Shown here piece after piece: positions 35,976-56,971 of a stretch of DNA of 64,000 bases (within the stretch, counting starts at the first letter, position 1; each line of letters begins with the position of its first letter). Where the stretch lies: assembly GCA_965222225.1 (NCBI GenBank), contig CBDCTK010000002.1:352001-416000 (forward strand), given 5' to 3'. A model generated the notes under the pieces. It searched no databases. It was not told the origin of the DNA and worked only from the letters and a program-made list of their open reading frames with translations. Made by a program: the position numbers and the translations under genes. This DNA is from Candidatus Poribacteria bacterium (lineage in GTDB: Bacteria > Poribacteria > WGA-4E > JAJDTR01).

Positions 35976-36010
35976 ATCAAGGGAGCGAATAGCGACTGCG
36001 ATAGAAATCC
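35976..36010 (+). repeat. 35-bp structured insert element, copy C
   Basis: ATCAAGGGAGCGAATAGCGACTGCGATAGAAATCC after TGTAGTAGCA. Confidence 0.85.
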
Positions 36011-36026
36011 CTTTATTGCGCGTCTT

Positions 36027-48724: not shown

Positions 48725-51478
48725 ATGTTTGAGAGAAAGAGTCCGATGAATCCCAATCAGCCTTTAAAGGTTGCGATTTCAATCCTCACAGTCTGTCTGA
48801 TGCTGCATGTTTATGTTCAGGCAGGTGAAGCACAAACGGAATCCGCCAAGAATCAGGGCAAGCAGTTAATTGACGATTTTGCGCAGCGTGCAACCGCGAC
48901 TCTTAATGGACAGGTCAACTGGGAAAATATGGATCTCTCCCAGACAACCGTACAGGTGTACAGAGACAAGACATTGACCGAATTATACACAGGTGTTACC
49001 AAAATTGAAGGCGGGCCCTTTTCCATAAAGGTTGAACCGGGCAGCTATTATGTTGTAGCTTTCGTTGACGTAAACAGGTCAGGGAAATTCGACGATGGCG
49101 ACGGTATGGGAATCTTGGGAATTGAGGATTGGCGTAATTCGGGTCAACAAAAGCAGTTGCTCAAGGTTGGTCCGCAACAGACTATTTCTGGGTTGATGAT
49201 TCTTGTGACGGCGAGAAATCAAAGGGGTAAGGTCGTTAGTGCTCAGCAATATCGGCCGGATGCAATTGACCAATTTAAGTCAGAACTTGAGAAAACCTCT
49301 TCCGGTGTAAAAGGAAGTATCAGTTATGCCACTCGTGCTTCTCTTGAAAATACCTCTGTACGCGCCTATACAGATCTTTCTTGGAAATACCTGGCAACCC
49401 AAACCGGGATAGAGGGTGATGGAAGTTTTACCCTCAATTTGAAGCCCGGGAAATATTACTTGATGGTCGTTATTGATTGGAACGATTCAAATCTTATTGA
49501 TCACGGGGATTGGCTGGGTATCCACGGAATTAACAATCTACAAAGTCGGAAGGCGTTTCCCGAACCCATTTTAGTCACCGCCAATAAATTCACGAAAGAC
49601 GTTCAAATTCAGATTTCAGGAAAGCAGCTTGAAAGTGGTCGAGTCGTCCCACTCGTTGACGCCGATTCTGCTTCGACTCCCTTGGACGATAAAATCGTTG
49701 AAGTCTCGGGTACAGTCGTATGGCGGGGGCATAATCTTGATGGATGTGTTTTACAGGTCTATGTGGACCCGACCTTGATACGACCTGTTCAGCAAGTGGA
49801 AGTTGAGGCGGATGGTAACTTCAGATTTCAACTGCGTCCGGGAGATTACTATATGATAGCCAGTGTAGACGCGGACGGGAATGGTCAATATGGTTCTAGT
49901 GACGGAGTTGGTGGTTACGGTACGTTGGACATGACAACTAGACCACCTACGGCACTCACGCTTACAAGTGGCGAAAATGCCAAGATTGAAATTGTGGTGA
50001 GTGCGCAATATGATGTAGATGGTCAACTTCAACCAACCGAATCGAAACATAGAATTTCGCAGTCAAGCAACGCCGAGACAGGTATATCCGGACGTATCGT
50101 GTGGGATGGCAAGAAATTCAAAGGAGGGATTCTGTCGCTTTCCAATATGCCGACGTTTAGCTCTGTTATTCCGATAGCTCTCAACTTGGAAGACGACGGT
50201 CGGTATAAAGTGGCAGTTCCTCCGGGCGATTATTACGTGACGGTAGCCGTTGATGTTGACGCGGATGGGCAAACAGGTCTAAGGGATGGAGTTGGTGTCT
50301 ACGGAACACGTCAACCTGTTCGCGGTACGCCACAATTGGTTTCCGTGTTTAATGATTATGTTACGCCCCATATTGACATTGAGATATTCGCAATGTACAT
50401 TGATTCGGAAGGCAACATCGCCGAATTTGAGGATGGTCACAGGTCCGAGATAAAATACCAACATGGGGACCCGGAAGACATATTTCAGTTCACGCGTTTC
50501 GGACGCGAGTTCGAGGAGTGGTGGTATTGGACGCAAGGACATCATTTCACGTTTTCCCTGACTCCCTCCGGTTGGAAATTGCAGGACCAACAGGAGTTTG
50601 AACCAAAGGTAAGCCTACAGCAACTCGCGCAAGCGCAACATCAGTTTGAGAGCGCGGGATGGCATTCTGATACGGATAATGCCTTGGAGTCAACCTTACT
50701 AAATGCCGCATTTTATTATAGCTACGATGGAATCATCTGGGAATATCACCCAATGGGCGCGTTACAACCTGTGGGTGCAGGGAGTTACCCGACCGTTGCT
50801 CAGAATGGACGACTCGTCTACTTGGATACAGAAGGAAATGTGCTTGGCCGAGATGCTGGTTCTCAAGACTCAAAACTTCTCTTGAGTCGCCAGGAACTGG
50901 CAAAGGAAGTTGTAATTTCTCCGTCAGGGGAGTACATCGGATTCACGCAGCAGCAAATCGATCGACAGCGAATCTTCATCCGACATTTGCCGTCAAATAG
51001 CGAATTTCTTCTTCCTTCTACGGCACGAGAAATGGGCTCGCCGAGGTGGAGCAGCAATGAAGAAATCCTGGCATATAGTACACGCGGAAGTATTGAAAAC
51101 GTGGGTAATCGAACAGGTCGAAACATCTACGCGTATGATCGAATCAACGAACGCATAGAACCGGTTGTAATTAGTAATGAAGATGATGCCGATCCCGCAT
51201 GGTCACCATCAGATGCTAATCTCATTGCGTTCTCGCGTGCCGAAGGAGGACATCGTCAAATCTGGCTCATTAAGTTCAATAGGGAAGGCGAACCGTCAGA
51301 GAATCAACTTACCCGGTACGGGGGCGAAAACCCGGTCTGGCTCCCGGACGGTTCAATAATCCTTTACGAAAGCAACGGTCAACTGTGGTTAATTTCGCGC
51401 GATGGAAGCGATAGCCGACCCGTTATTCATGAAGGCCAACTACTGTATGGCAATGAGCCATACGTTGTTCCCCAATGA
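48725..51478 (+). CDS. Secreted multidomain protein: four beta-sandwich repeats with DxDxDG Ca-binding-like loops plus a C-terminal TolB-like propeller
   Basis: 4x (PG.YY....D.(N/D).....D..G..G); PD40-like ISPSG, PRWSS, PAWSP, PVWLPDG. Confidence 0.75.
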   Translation: MFERKSPMNPNQPLKVAISILTVCLMLHVYVQAGEAQTESAKNQGKQLIDDFAQRATATLNGQVNWENMDLSQTTVQVYRDKTLTELYTGVTKIEGGPFSIKVEPGSYYVVAFVDVNRSGKFDDGDGMGILGIEDWRNSGQQKQLLKVGPQQTISGLMILVTARNQRGKVVSAQQYRPDAIDQFKSELEKTSSGVKGSISYATRASLENTSVRAYTDLSWKYLATQTGIEGDGSFTLNLKPGKYYLMVVIDWNDSNLIDHGDWLGIHGINNLQSRKAFPEPILVTANKFTKDVQIQISGKQLESGRVVPLVDADSASTPLDDKIVEVSGTVVWRGHNLDGCVLQVYVDPTLIRPVQQVEVEADGNFRFQLRPGDYYMIASVDADGNGQYGSSDGVGGYGTLDMTTRPPTALTLTSGENAKIEIVVSAQYDVDGQLQPTESKHRISQSSNAETGISGRIVWDGKKFKGGILSLSNMPTFSSVIPIALNLEDDGRYKVAVPPGDYYVTVAVDVDADGQTGLRDGVGVYGTRQPVRGTPQLVSVFNDYVTPHIDIEIFAMYIDSEGNIAEFEDGHRSEIKYQHGDPEDIFQFTRFGREFEEWWYWTQGHHFTFSLTPSGWKLQDQQEFEPKVSLQQLAQAQHQFESAGWHSDTDNALESTLLNAAFYYSYDGIIWEYHPMGALQPVGAGSYPTVAQNGRLVYLDTEGNVLGRDAGSQDSKLLLSRQELAKEVVISPSGEYIGFTQQQIDRQRIFIRHLPSNSEFLLPSTAREMGSPRWSSNEEILAYSTRGSIENVGNRTGRNIYAYDRINERIEPVVISNEDDADPAWSPSDANLIAFSRAEGGHRQIWLIKFNREGEPSENQLTRYGGENPVWLPDGSIILYESNGQLWLISRDGSDSRPVIHEGQLLYGNEPYVVPQ

Positions 51479-52812
51479 CACGACGACTCAGCCCCGCAGG
51501 TAGAAAAATGCTTTCACTCAACCGCCTTTTAATAGTACTTATATTTTCGCTAATGTCAATAGTGAACACCGGCTTGGCGCAGTGGATGCTTGTACCGATG
51601 GACCGAGTTCAAACCAATCACCTCAAAGCATACGGCTTGACCTACTGGACGCTCCAAACGCCACGAGAGTATAATACGAAGTGGCTGCTGAACTATCGCG
51701 GCGGTGCGTTTCTCCTTTCCGATTCGCCTGATGTGCGAGCTCAAGCACAGCGTATGGGAGTTAGTTTTGAACCCATCTCCAATCTTGAATACGGCGGTAT
51801 TCAAGCGGAGCTAGAGGGGAGCAACATGGACGAAATTCTTCTGGAGAAAGCGCCGAAGATCGCTGTCTATGCACCGCCTGATAATACGCCTTATCGCGAT
51901 CCCTGGGATGATGCGGTAAAACTTGCATTGGACTATGCGCAAATACCGTACGATAAAATCTGGGATGAGCAAGTTGCAGCAGGTGTTTTGTCGCTGGGCG
52001 AATATGACTGGCTCCACTTGCATCATGAGGATTTTACCGGGCAGCATGGAAAGTTTTACAGAACTTTCAAGAGCGCGGTTTGGTATCAACAACGTGTGCG
52101 TTTGTTCGAAGAAGCTGCCGCCAAAGCTGGATTTAATCGCGTGCCGACTCTCAAAGGATTCATCTCCCAGCGAATCCAAGATTATGTCGTTGGTGGGGGT
52201 TTTATTTTTGCAATGTGTTCTGCACCTGAAACACTAGATATCGCGTGCGCGACAAAGGCAGGGCGTGTCGACATTGTTGAACCGGAGTTGGATGGTACGC
52301 CGCTCGATCCGAATTACCAAGCACAGTTGGATTTTGAGCGAACCTTCGCATTCGAAAATTTCATGCTATACACGGATCCGAATCGATATGAGTTTTCCAA
52401 CATAGATAATCCACAGCCCGACTTCAACCCGTTATCGGGTGTTGAAGATTTCGTTCTATTTGAGTTCGCTGCCAAGCACGATCCGATACCTACAATGCTC
52501 ACGCAGAACCATGTGAGTAAGGTGCGTGGTTACCTAGGACAAACTACGTCCTTCAATAAAGCCACAATTCGGGATACGGTAACGGTTCTCGGTGACATTG
52601 AGGGCAGCCGATACGCGAAGTACATCCACGGAAAATTGGGAAAAGGTACCTTCACCTTTCTCGGTGGGCACGACCCGGAGGATTATAGACATTCCGTTGG
52701 CGAAGGCAAGATCCCGACCAACCTAGATCTTCACAAACATTCACCGGGGTATCGACTTATTCTTAACAACATACTCTTTCCCGCCGCAAGAAAGAAGCTG
52801 CAAAAGACATGA
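51475..52812 (+). CDS. Secreted conserved protein of the Bacteroidota family usually mislabelled 'asparagine synthetase B' (GATase1-like fold)
   Basis: PMD..Q.NHLKAYG, WLLNYRGG, DPWDDAV, YDWLHLHHEDFTGQ.GKF, FAMCSA, GGHDPEDY.H, SPGYRLILNN.LFPAA. Confidence 0.8.
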   Translation: MTRRLSPAGRKMLSLNRLLIVLIFSLMSIVNTGLAQWMLVPMDRVQTNHLKAYGLTYWTLQTPREYNTKWLLNYRGGAFLLSDSPDVRAQAQRMGVSFEPISNLEYGGIQAELEGSNMDEILLEKAPKIAVYAPPDNTPYRDPWDDAVKLALDYAQIPYDKIWDEQVAAGVLSLGEYDWLHLHHEDFTGQHGKFYRTFKSAVWYQQRVRLFEEAAAKAGFNRVPTLKGFISQRIQDYVVGGGFIFAMCSAPETLDIACATKAGRVDIVEPELDGTPLDPNYQAQLDFERTFAFENFMLYTDPNRYEFSNIDNPQPDFNPLSGVEDFVLFEFAAKHDPIPTMLTQNHVSKVRGYLGQTTSFNKATIRDTVTVLGDIEGSRYAKYIHGKLGKGTFTFLGGHDPEDYRHSVGEGKIPTNLDLHKHSPGYRLILNNILFPAARKKLQKT

Positions 52813-52866
52813 GATATAAACTTAGCGACCACAAAAAGCGCTGATTTGCACTTCGTATTGGTGGTT

Positions 52867-53113
52867 ATACCTTTTCGTTTGAATAGCATGAATAACAGTG
52901 CAAATGATGTTTTAATTATATCATTTTCTTTCTCCGTAGGCGGGGATCAAGCGAGCGCGATAGAAATCCCCTCAAGTGACCGAATAGGGAACGCGATAGC
53001 AATCCCCTTGCCCCGCCGACTTTATGCGGCGACAAGGCATCTTATTCCACTCCACACAAGTTTCTTTACTTGACCCACGCAATTAATGCACTTGAATTTG
53101 GGATAAACGATAT
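52867..53113. mobile_element. MITE copy 3 carrying two tandem 35-bp-type inserts (F1 52946-52970, internally deleted; F2 52971-53005)
   Basis: Colinear with 27626-27840; right end degenerate. Confidence 0.75.
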
Positions 53114-53220
53114 GAGTAGAGATCGGTTAGGAACCACGGGGCTCCATTTCGTATGGACAGGATTTTTTCTCGGCATTCCACCGTTTATTTTGTCGACATT
53201 GCATTCTTTACTGCTGCATT

Positions 53221-55323
53221 ATGAAACTTGCTACATTAGCAACCTGCAATCTTAATCAGTGGGCACTTGATTTTAGCGGTAATTTTGAGAGGATAATTGA
53301 ATCTATCCAAGTTGCCAAGAGCAGAGGTGCTCGATATCGGTTGGGTCCGGAACTCGAAATTCCGGGTTATGGTTGCGAGGATGCTTTTTTGGAAGATGAC
53401 ACGTTCCTCCATTCGTGGGAATGTCTTGGTGAGATTCTTAAAAGTGACTTGACAGATAATATCCTCTGCGACACCGGTATGCCCGTTATGCACAAGAATG
53501 TACGATATAATTGCAGAGTCATCGTGTTAAACGGGAAGATTCTCTTTATCCGCCCTAAGCTTGTGCTTGCGTCCGATCGCAACTATCGAGAACCACGATG
53601 GTTCGTTCCTTGGCAATTGCCCAGCAAGTTGGAAGAACACTACCTGCCAAGGATGATTCGGGAAATTACGGGGCAGGCTACTGTACCTTTTGGCGATGGC
53701 GCTATTGCCACTCGGGATACAGCACTCGCTCCCGAGACCTGCGAGGAACTTTTTGCACCCAATAGCCCGCATATTTATCTTGGTCTTGATGGAGTCGAGA
53801 TTATTGCGAACGGATCGGGCTCCCATCACGAACTAAGAAAACTAAATCAGCGGGTTGACCTGATACGGAATGGCACATCGAAAAACGGAGGTGTATATCT
53901 CTACTCCAATCAGAGGGGGTGCGATGGCGGACGCCTTTACTTCGACGGATGCGCGCTTATTGCGGTCAACGGCGAGGTTGTCGCACAAGGCCAGCAATTT
54001 TCGTTGCAAGATGTCGAAGTCGTTACTGCCACAGTGAACCTTGAGGATGTTCGGTCATACCGTGGTGCCATGGTAAGTCGTTCGGTTCAAGCCAGTCAAT
54101 CTCAGCCAATTCCGCGCATTGATGTAGATTTTGATTTGACCGTGGAGGAATATCAGATTGCGCCTTCTGTGCCAACAAAGGTCCGATACCATCTCCCGGA
54201 GGAGGAGATTGCGTGTGGCCCCAGTTGCTGGCTATGGGATTACCTCAGACGGTCTGGTGCGTGCGGTTATTTTCTGCCAATATCCGGCGGATCCGATAGT
54301 TCGTCCGTGGCAACCATGGTTGGCTCAATGTGTCAGATGGTGGTCAATGAGACGGCACAAGGAAATCAACAAGTTATTCGCGATGTTCGCCGATTAGTTG
54401 GAAAAGAAGATACCGATTACTTCCCGGTAGACGCGCGCGAGCTGGCAAACCGTGTCTTCTACACTTGCTATATGGGTACGGAAAATAGTTCCAAGGCGAC
54501 ACGAAGTCGGGCAAAGGTTTTGACGAATCAAATTGGCTCATTCCACTTGGACGCCAATATTGATTCGATAGTTACCGCCATGTTTGAACTCTTTGTGCGC
54601 TTGACCTCAAAAGCGCCTCGATTTAAAGTTGAGGGAGGGACAGATGCCGAAAACGCTGCTCTACAGAACATCCAAGCGCGTTTGCGCATGGTATTGTCCT
54701 ATTTCCTGGCACAACTTTTACCGTGGGTAAGAGGCAAACATGGAGGATTGCTAGTATTGGGAACTGCCAATGTGGATGAGAGTTTACGCGGCTATATGAC
54801 AAAGTACGATTGCAGTAGCGCAGATATCAACCCGATTGGCGCCATTAGTAAAACGGACCTACGCTCGTTTCTGCGATGGGCATCGGAAAATCTCGGATAT
54901 ACCTCCCTCACAGAAATCGTCGAAGCGCCCTCAACCGCCGAATTGGAACCGTTGACCGAAACACATGTGCAGGAAGATGAAGCGGACATGGGCATGACTT
55001 ATGCCGAACTTAGCCGATTTGGCAGATTACGGAAAGTTCATCGTTGTGGTCCTGTGAGTATGTTTGAAAAGCTTGTCCACGAGTGGACACATCTCGCCCC
55101 TAGCGAAGTTGCCGTAAAAGTTAAGAGATTCTTTCGGTATTACGCCATCAATCGTCACAAAATGACGACCCTAACGCCGTCTTATCACGCGGAGTCCTAT
55201 TCACCGGATGACAATCGGTTTGATCTTCGACAGTTTCTCTACAATGTAAGATGGACGTGGCAATTCCACAAAATGGATGAACTTGTGGAAAAAATGCACG
55301 AGAAAAACAGAACGCGAGTTTAA
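53221..55323 (+). CDS. nadE: Glutamine-dependent NAD+ synthetase, eukaryote (NADSYN1/Qns1)-type
   Basis: Nitrilase triad (GPELE, RPKL, ETCEE), SGGSDS P-loop, [37 protein letters not shown]. Confidence 0.95.
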
Positions 55324-56971
55324 GATGAGTCTAGGTCTAGCAGACGTTCAAACATTCAAGCGTTCAGTCTCCCCTAAATCTACCAGCATATTAACTATAT
55401 TGCGATGCGCAACATGCAACTCGCACTACCCTCCACTTTTCACCTTTAACGCATGCCTTATTGTCTTCTCCTTCCTTGTAGTAAGTGCAGTCAATGCTAC
55501 GCCAGACGCGGTTTTCCATTTCGACGCATGGGTGAATTCTGCTCTAGAAAAACTAGAAACCGATGGTGTTACTGGCGGTTTTCACCGGCACACACGTCCC
55601 CACACACGTCGCCAGATTGCAGAAGTGATACGTCAAGCACGGCGCCGGCTTGCCAGTGGAAGGAGTAAACCATCCCCCATAACAATGGAACTTCTGGAAA
55701 AATTACAATGTGAGTTCGCTCCGGAGTTAGCCCTCCTATCAGGTCAAGACGATGGGGGTGGATTGCGCGCTCGCGGGACTATCCAGTTGCGGAGTAGACG
55801 AGATAGCTCGGAACTCGGTCCTGTGTATGAAGGGGCGATTATTTATGATGCGGGCGCGTGGATGACGCTCTATCAAGAATTTGAGGTTGCGAACTTGCCG
55901 GAGAAGTATCCAATTCATGGTAAGACTGCTTCGAAACGTCTAAAGTCTTGGCGCGGAGATTTTTCAGCTGACTTCAAGAGAGTTTATCTGCGTTTCCCGA
56001 TTTCCAAGTTCGAACTACTCATAGGCCGTGATCAACTCTTCTGGGGCACAGGATTTCGCGGAGCGGTTGGAATTTCCGATAACTCGCCTCCATTCGATCT
56101 TATTTTGCTGACCGGCAAATTCGGTAAAATTAGAGGAACGTCCTTCACGGCACAACTCGACCAGGTTTGGCATGACGAGGAGCCTCGTCGCTATCTCGCT
56201 AGTCGCTATCTGGCAGGGCACCGATTGGATTACCAAATCAACGACCGCGTTGAGGTCGGAGTCTCGGAGCTAATCTTGTACGGAGGAGAAACACAAGGGG
56301 TTGAATGGCAGTATTTCAATCCAATCCTGCCGTATTATGCCAGCCAATACAATGCTGATAAAGACGACAATGTAATGTTTCTTTTCGAGGGAGCAGTTCG
56401 TCCTGTTGATGGGTTACGTCTTTACGGAGAATTCCTCATGGATGATGTCCATTACGTTAAGGCGAATGATCCAAACGCTGTAGCATGGCTCACGGGGCTG
56501 GAATGGAACCGCACACTCGAATCACGCCGACTAGGGATTCGTACCGAATACGCTCGTGTAAATCGGTGGGCGTATACGCACCTCGTTCAAGAGAATCAGT
56601 TCACCCATTTTGGTTCGATTATTGGACATGAGATTGGAGTAGATGCCGATATTTCTTATCTCGAAGGAAATTATCTGATAAACGCTGATACCCGCGTAAA
56701 CCTGTTCTTTGAGTTGGAACGTCAAGGAGAAGCAGGAGTTGAGGACCGCTATGCCGGTGAAGATTTCCGATTAATCCCGTTTCCATCCGGTGTCGTTGAA
56801 CGCCGGCACAGTTTCGGGTTTCGGTTCGTGTACGAGCCACTCCGTGCTTGGCAATTAGATTTTTCATATCGACACGCTTATACTCTAAACGGGAATCATC
56901 AACGCGGAATCAGTCGGAACTCTAATCATCTTGAGTTCCAGTTCCGATATCTTTGGGAACGAGGTTTTTAA
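55277..56971 (+). CDS. Capsule assembly Wzi-family outer-membrane protein (true start probably downstream, e.g. 55325)
   Basis: RPHTRRQIA helical N-domain, [43 protein letters not shown]. Confidence 0.8.

Follow-up and report, generated by a model that had tools for sequence, protein, structure and literature searches.

A eukaryote-type glutamine-dependent NAD+ synthetase as the sole NadE of a poribacterial genome

In the survey of ~940 genomes by De Ingeniis et al. (2012), the eukaryotic branch of the fused NAD synthetases was concluded to have arisen from a bacterial branch (PMC3376133), and the excerpts consulted mention no bacteria inside the eukaryotic branch. The family of fused enzymes includes yeast Qns1 (PMC3376133, PMC6946656) and, among the solved structures, the human enzyme NADSYN1 (6ofb; PMC6946656); the bacterial side is represented by 3ilv of Cytophaga hutchinsonii, which falls in that study's type-F branches, those of fused, two-domain enzymes (PMC3376133), and by the Mycobacterium tuberculosis-type NadE, an octameric, glutamine-dependent enzyme (PMC6946656, PMC7196632). 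Here we describe nadE, a gene for a synthetase of the eukaryotic type, in a 64,000-nucleotide stretch of a Candidatus Poribacteria genome (positions 352001-416000 of contig C2, CBDCTK010000002.1, of assembly GCA_965222225.1; hereafter the window, to which all coordinates refer). It is a known enzyme in an unexpected host; no published description of the clade that it forms with its relatives in Poribacteria and Chloroflexota was found in the open-access PMC and bioRxiv literature, and the public records of these relatives are titled NAD(+) synthase or glutamine-dependent NAD(+) synthetase. The gene and its two domains, the latter also given in amino acid (aa) positions, are the following:

53221..55323, + strand: nadE, eukaryote-type (NADSYN1/Qns1-like) glutamine-dependent NAD+ synthetase, 700 aa, the sole NadE of the genome
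53236..54063, + strand: N-terminal nitrilase-type glutaminase domain (PF00795), aa 6-281, with residues E44, K113, C174, E124, Y122 and H202 mapped via the 6ofb alignment
54229..55014, + strand: C-terminal NAD synthetase (ATP pyrophosphatase) domain (PF02540), aa 337-598, with an SGGSDS motif at aa 355-360

The open reading frame (ORF) starts with ATG, is intact and intron-free, and its product carries in one chain the two domains by which NADSYN1/Qns1-type enzymes are recognized, CN_hydrolase (E 1.3e-36) being followed by NAD_synthase (E 8.2e-25). The best match among all solved structures is chain A of the human enzyme (6ofb_A, 948.3 bits, E 2.2e-284), in a nearly gapless alignment of residues 4-689 with residues 6-692 of the chain, whereas the solved bacterial enzymes match far more weakly, 3ilv with 215 bits (105 + 108, in both domains) and 3dla with 76 bits, in the glutaminase domain only. 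The protein is not a member of the ordinary bacterial NadE equivalog families, its scores lying below the cut-offs of PRK02628 (138.6 vs 473), PRK13981 (101.9 vs 479), PRK13980 (74.3 vs 255) and PRK00768 (61.8 vs 250), and the only NCBIfam model passed is the generic nadE domain model TIGR00552 (83 vs 63.65). The initial annotation, made from the letters alone, had relied on six motif strings in classing the gene with the eukaryotic rather than the bacterial enzymes; all six occur in the translation and align with the human enzyme and, the scores being what they are, "eukaryote-type" is a fair description.

The residues involved in catalysis lead in the same direction. The catalytic triad of the human glutaminase consists of Glu45, Lys114 and Cys175, with Glu125 as a second glutamate (PMC6946656), and in the 6ofb alignment, which is ungapped over the first ~310 residues, these positions are occupied by E44, K113, C174 and E124 of the window protein. 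Furthermore, according to Chuenchor et al., human Tyr123 and His203 are conserved in eukaryotes, prokaryotes having Phe and Pro at these places (PMC6946656); the window protein has Y122, the Tyr of the YRE loop, and H202 and thus sides with the eukaryotes, whereas the enzymes of M. tuberculosis and Chloroflexota type have the Phe and Pro. The likeness does not extend to all the residues of the tunnel and its gate, since human Trp54, Trp179 and Tyr242 are replaced by Glu, Phe and Phe, respectively. As to the C-terminal domain, the SGGSDS motif corresponds to the PP-loop that binds ATP.

Compared with the enzymes already known, therefore, the window protein is collinear over its full length with human NADSYN1 and its animal orthologues, sharing with them both domains, the Cys-Glu-Lys triad, the second Glu, the Tyr and the His203 counterpart, without group-specific insertions or deletions; it differs from the human enzyme in the three substitutions just mentioned and from all of them in being encoded, without introns, in a bacterial chromosome. 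Family and architecture are shared also with yeast Qns1 and the fungal orthologues, but the identity is far below that with animals, as judged from the one labelled fungal protein compared (Durotheca), which reaches 48%. With 3ilv, the nearest solved bacterial relative, the fusion of glutaminase and synthetase is held in common, and with M. tuberculosis NadE (3dla/3sdb), as with the fused NadE of ~700 aa that most Chloroflexota have, the reaction and the order of the domains; the Chloroflexota enzymes, however, match with at most 89 bits and 24-35% identity. The ordinary NadE proteins of other Poribacteria, which are either single-domain or ~550-aa fused PRK13981-like enzymes, belong to the same phylum and perform the same catalytic step, yet they score 186-268 bits against PF02540, as opposed to 89 for the window protein, and only 21-50 bits against the window protein itself.

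A search of the whole genome with PF02540 gave three matches, namely nadE, LarE and MnmA; since the latter two are identified as such by NCBIfam equivalogs, the window gene is the only NAD synthetase of the genome, and the question raised by the initial annotation as to a second nadE is answered in the negative. The genes nadD, nadA and nadC were found elsewhere in the genome, so that the substrate, nicotinate adenine dinucleotide (NaAD), can be made. Judging from the sequence, nadE should encode a working synthetase of NADSYN1/Qns1 type, in which the N-terminal nitrilase-type domain would hydrolyze glutamine, the ammonia would travel inside the protein, by way of a tunnel, to the ATP-pyrophosphatase domain at the C-terminus, and the latter would adenylate and then amidate NaAD to yield NAD+.

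The distribution of the gene across the phylum, which the initial annotation had proposed to check, is sharply bounded. When 150 other genomes sampled from the phylum were searched at E<=1e-20, the gene was detected in 138 of the 139 belonging to the same order (9/9, 25/26, 100/100 and 4/4 in families f1, f2, f3 and f4) and in none of the 11 from other poribacterial orders and classes. Five of these 11 were checked for an ordinary NadE and all five have one, either single-domain or ~550-aa fused; the ordinary and the eukaryote-type enzyme were never met together in the poribacterial genomes checked. The only genome of the order without a match to the eukaryote-type NadE is G134 (family f2, genus g5), which is 95% complete and in 260 contigs. 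In nine genomes from two poribacterial genera (G056, G057, G059, G070, G079, G111, G112, G116 and G126; e.g., loci L054, L057 and L071) the match to nadE falls in two segments.

Homologues with 70-99% identity are plentiful in public data and those that carry a name are Poribacteria or Chloroflexota. In a pattern scan that took one genome from each of 185,579 prokaryote species and is biased to close relatives, 107 relatives were found, and the 80 that were kept comprise 64 titled Poribacteria, 5 titled "uncultured bacterium", 10 of Chloroflexota type and 1 from Peribacteria. The Chloroflexota-type copies, which come from 10 species genomes (Anaerolineae, Ardenticatenaceae, Promineifilaceae and others), have 70-73% identity to the window protein, and the Peribacteria copy 53%. 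Among 400 Chloroflexota genomes drawn evenly across the phylum, a count that includes the unpublished genome G193 with a weak match of 62 bits, none has the gene, the best other match (89 bits) being an ordinary ~700-aa fused NadE. Of the four Chloroflexota carriers that were checked, two (G152 and G154) possess an extra NAD-synthase-like gene, with a frame of ~330 aa and 96-113 bits to PF02540, and the other two have the eukaryote type only. The Peribacteria genome (G153, locus L075), a 1.4-Mb genome of the candidate phyla radiation, encodes an ordinary NadE in a frame of 254 aa and, besides it, a eukaryote-type NadE in a frame of 758 aa; the clade formed by the latter with P0131 and P0155 stands apart from Poribacteria and Chloroflexota in every tree. 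This separation suggests an independent acquisition and, with it, that bacteria have captured the gene repeatedly.

Within the order, the position of the gene is old. The succession of two upstream genes, nadE and one downstream gene is common to the family of the window and to the most divergent poribacterial NadE subclade, whose NadE is 66-70% identical, and the neighbours in this conserved order have diverged as much or more (72%, 42-49% and 41-51%); the gene was therefore at this position already early in the history of the order. In a group of ~78% identity and in all Chloroflexota, nadE is found in other gene contexts. The most likely course of events is one in which, in the ancestor of one poribacterial order, the eukaryote-type gene replaced the ordinary NadE that other poribacterial lineages still keep and was thereafter inherited vertically at a conserved chromosomal position. 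The few Chloroflexota species would share the gene lineage through transfer from bacterium to bacterium, an exchange that may have run either way between the two phyla.

For the phylogenetic analyses, the labelled eukaryotes comprised, besides many animals and a number of red algae, a single fungus, a single plant (the first copy of a double-length lupin model), three apicomplexans and one ciliate. In the trees rooted on ordinary NadE, namely a FastTree of 123 rows, restricted to representatives of 620-900 aa and including 21 of the 69 Poribacteria-type loci, and a 53-row IQ-TREE (LG+C20 PMSF), Poribacteria and Chloroflexota form a single clade with support of 100 and 99, respectively; this clade belongs to an unresolved node together with the plant, the red algae and the opisthokonts, the alveolates remaining outside (95 and 95 in IQ-TREE). 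A root on the ordinary fused NadE of other Poribacteria (L086, L089 and L090) was dropped, its branch being ~10 substitutions per site long and Myxobolus and Eimeria falling at the base. An outgroup nearer than this was sought among prokaryotes in an unlabelled deep clade (P0218, P0230, P0224 and P0226), but the clade proved not to be prokaryotic and was likewise rejected, a relative of it lying on a contig of 26-32% GC beside polyubiquitin and an OTU protease. The contig in question, L095:1676-8055, comes from a metagenome and has relatives in L094 and L096-L098; these carry a long-branched NADSYN1-type gene of 890-940 aa on intron-free DNA of 26-32% GC, and the neighbours in L095 are genes for polyubiquitin and for proteins resembling an OTU protease and a ribose-phosphate pyrophosphokinase, so that the DNA is probably that of a giant virus or of an AT-rich protist carrying NAD-synthesis genes.

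Removal of 3 outgroup rows, 4 deep rows, P0155, P0134, L008, L063, L033, Tupaia, Cyanidium and P0164 left a set of 38 rows. The maximum-likelihood (ML) tree of this set (ultrafast bootstrap/SH-aLRT) recovers Metazoa (100/97), opisthokonts (98/98), red algae (100/98), Chloroflexota (98/96) and six Poribacteria (97/94); Poribacteria and Chloroflexota are joined (95/93) in a short-branched group outside the opisthokonts, and the Peribacteria-like clade is separate (100/99). The remaining backbone is unresolved, and two rows, L074 from Poribacteria and the unlabelled P0123, lack a firm placement. In every tree the window protein is placed among eukaryotic sequences, inside them or as their sister, and in none does it nest in an ordinary widespread bacterial NadE clade, the outcome that the initial annotation had named as contrary to its view. 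In raw identity the protein stands at 62% to lancelet and sea anemone and at 61% to both Tupaia, a mammal, and Galdieria, a red alga, the lamprey falling within 61-62%. It is thus a protein that evolves slowly and lies close to the middle of the eukaryote tree.

That the gene has crossed between domains of life is secure, because its product is ~60% identical to and collinear with the animal enzyme, because in bacteria it is confined to one order and a handful of other species, and because the sister lineages keep an unrelated form of NadE. The source genome is metagenome-assembled and the short-read contigs of other runs stop at a repeat immediately upstream of nadE, circumstances that could bring to mind a eukaryotic (host) fragment mis-binned or mis-assembled into a bacterial genome; this explanation is, however, effectively refuted. 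In fact, nadE lies ~405 kb inside a multi-megabase contig of a two-contig genome (5,698,352 bp, 94.9% complete), the closest public loci are titled Candidatus Poribacteria, the gene order recurs in complete chromosomes of relatives and in another family of Poribacteria, and the gene, present as it is in almost all the genomes of the order, has native codon usage, no introns and no other NadE beside it. Moreover, the stretch 52300-56300 occurs nearly word for word in 20 public runs from 9 studies, and in four runs, each from a different study, in which the bridging by contigs was examined, contigs from two of these studies, 12,852 bp and 4,074 bp long, span nadE into the downstream bacterial gene with 3 and 6 mismatches, and a 319-bp contig spans the upstream repeat into the start of nadE. 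The misassembly against which the initial annotation had cautioned is thus contradicted by both synteny and independent contigs. As to the direction of the transfer, we infer that the gene lineage probably, if far from certainly, entered bacteria from a eukaryote, near the early eukaryote radiation or from an unsampled lineage; this is favoured because the distribution makes both bacterial hosts look like recipients and because capture seems to have occurred more than once.

Several observations weigh against this direction and speak instead for descent of the Poribacteria/Chloroflexota gene from the bacterial lineage that supplied the NAD synthetase of the last eukaryotic common ancestor, of which it would be the closest surviving prokaryotic relative. 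Animals and red algae are only 53-58% identical (lancelet vs red algae, 53-57%), less than the window protein is to either, a pattern that fits a very old split. In the 72-row FastTree the bacterial clade (98) attaches at the node between the opisthokonts (99) and all other eukaryotes (94), which is where a sister of all eukaryotes would join under the usual rooting, and in the 38-row tree it joins the non-opisthokont backbone that is unresolved; a search for insertions and deletions found none that would set the groups apart and polarise the tree. The approximately unbiased (AU) test, which put no constraint on unlabelled rows, does not reject a clade in which the 19 labelled eukaryotes stand together without any bacteria (p 0.261, difference in log-likelihood, dlnL, 12.6). 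The "nesting" of the bacteria in the eukaryotes seen in the rooted trees may be due to long-branch attraction, given the outgroup branch of ~10 substitutions per site and the fall of the fast-evolving myxozoan and of Eimeria to the base, and the labelled eukaryotes include no sponges, amoebozoans, excavates, stramenopiles, rhizarians, haptophytes or green algae. Furthermore, some bacterial donor must have existed, given the derivation of the eukaryotic branch from a bacterial one (PMC3376133). Against a bacterial donor stand, besides the rooted trees, weak as that rooting is, the restriction of the gene to a single poribacterial order, its absence from the 11 genomes of sister lineages and from the 400 Chloroflexota, and the second, Peribacteria-like clade standing apart; so confined a distribution would require an unseen bacterial reservoir persisting since before the eukaryote ancestor, and we regard this alternative as rather unlikely, though one to be taken seriously. 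The two readings had been put forward as a pair by the initial annotation; as a pair they are borne out, and the AU test does not decide between them. A narrower version of the entry from eukaryotes, namely that an ancestral poribacterium living with sponges took the gene from its animal (sponge) host and that Chloroflexota received it later, draws on the fact that Poribacteria are sponge symbionts, on the top raw identities, which are to slowly evolving animals (61-62%), on the human enzyme being the best solved structure and on a clade of Metazoa, Poribacteria and Chloroflexota not being rejected either (AU p 0.158, dlnL 12.75). It is nevertheless improbable: the 38-row ML tree gives both Metazoa and opisthokonts without bacteria, Galdieria is as similar as the animals are, in a search with a red-alga protein those of Chloroflexota and Poribacteria (57-59%) come right after other red algae and above all animal, fungal and plant proteins save the double-length lupin model, and the record titles of the Chloroflexota carriers do not name sponges. 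As the searches contained no sponge sequence, an origin from a sponge host is not demonstrable, and the host-associated lifestyle, to which the initial annotation had appealed as making the transfer plausible, is neither supported nor rejected, since the ML tree places the bacteria outside the opisthokonts but the grouping with animals survives the AU test.

The event appears to be one in which an essential, single-copy housekeeping enzyme was swapped, across a whole bacterial order, for the version of animals, plants and fungi, and it offers a clean and datable example of gene replacement between domains. Lying near the centre of the eukaryote tree, the clade could reveal the eukaryotic lineage that acted as donor or else the bacteria nearest to the source of the eukaryotic enzyme; should the bacterial descent be the true one, a concrete bacterial partner would be at hand for one of the housekeeping genes of eukaryotes, for which a bacterial source had been deduced in 2012 with no close donor to point to. 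From a practical standpoint, work on expression, structure and inhibitor selectivity could draw on these bacteria as an intron-free source of an NADSYN1-type enzyme that shares ~60% identity with its human counterpart. Finally, metagenomic reads resembling NADSYN1 that are assigned to eukaryotes by similarity alone would cause these bacteria to be misfiled.

The surroundings of nadE in the window comprise the following features:

48725..51478, + strand: second gene upstream of nadE and syntenic with it; its 917-aa product weakly matches PD40 and transthyretin-like repeats
51475..52812, + strand: conserved gene next upstream, 445 aa, assigned to no Pfam family; its synteny with nadE extends over two families of Poribacteria
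52925..53035, no strand: short repeat, dispersed in the genome, in the intergenic space upstream of nadE; two GCGATAG[A/C]AATCCCCT cores lie 36 nt apart in it
55325..56971, + strand: downstream neighbour, a Wzi-like outer-membrane protein (PF14052, E 2.1e-23)

The flanks are bacterial, as had been surmised, with the PD40-repeat protein on one side, the Wzi-like protein on the other and, farther downstream, a class-II glutamine amidotransferase resembling purF. The Wzi-like ORF as listed begins at 55277 and overlaps the end of nadE by 47 nt (55277-55323); an in-frame ATG at 55325, right after the nadE stop, is the likelier start of this gene, and the abutting of stop and ATG suggests tight coupling or co-transcription of the two genes. 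With a GC content of 0.485 and a third-position GC content (GC3) of 0.480, nadE stays within the range of the 32 remaining long ORFs in the window (0.499+-0.028 and 0.513+-0.060, respectively), and in codon usage it ranks 31st of 33 for deviance, among the least deviant. Contigs from two RNA libraries tile nadE, which is consistent with transcription but no proof of it, because such libraries can contain DNA. A scan of 52700-55500 for promoters and terminators remained at chance level (5 vs 3.7 expected and 5 vs 2.8 expected). Runs X19 and X20 are labelled sponge metagenome and have word shares of 0.26-0.34; they were not used as evidence of habitat.

The initial annotation had placed a miniature inverted-repeat transposable element (MITE) just upstream of nadE. 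What stands of this claim is a genuine dispersed repeat at 52925-53035, with at least 47 genome matches among those listed by a search in which 40 of the 367 first-look candidates were scored; the features of a MITE were not borne out, as no inverted repeats were found in 52700-53300 (seed 9, minimum length 12), and the label is unproven. A 7-nt pair, GGCGGGG...CCCCGCC, below the threshold of this search, is visible by eye in the region. The short-read contigs of other runs break exactly at the repeat, where the word depth rises 5-10-fold. The core GCGATAG[A/C]AATCCCCT matches three times in the window, as against 0 expected, and a related core occurs also at 35998-36013.

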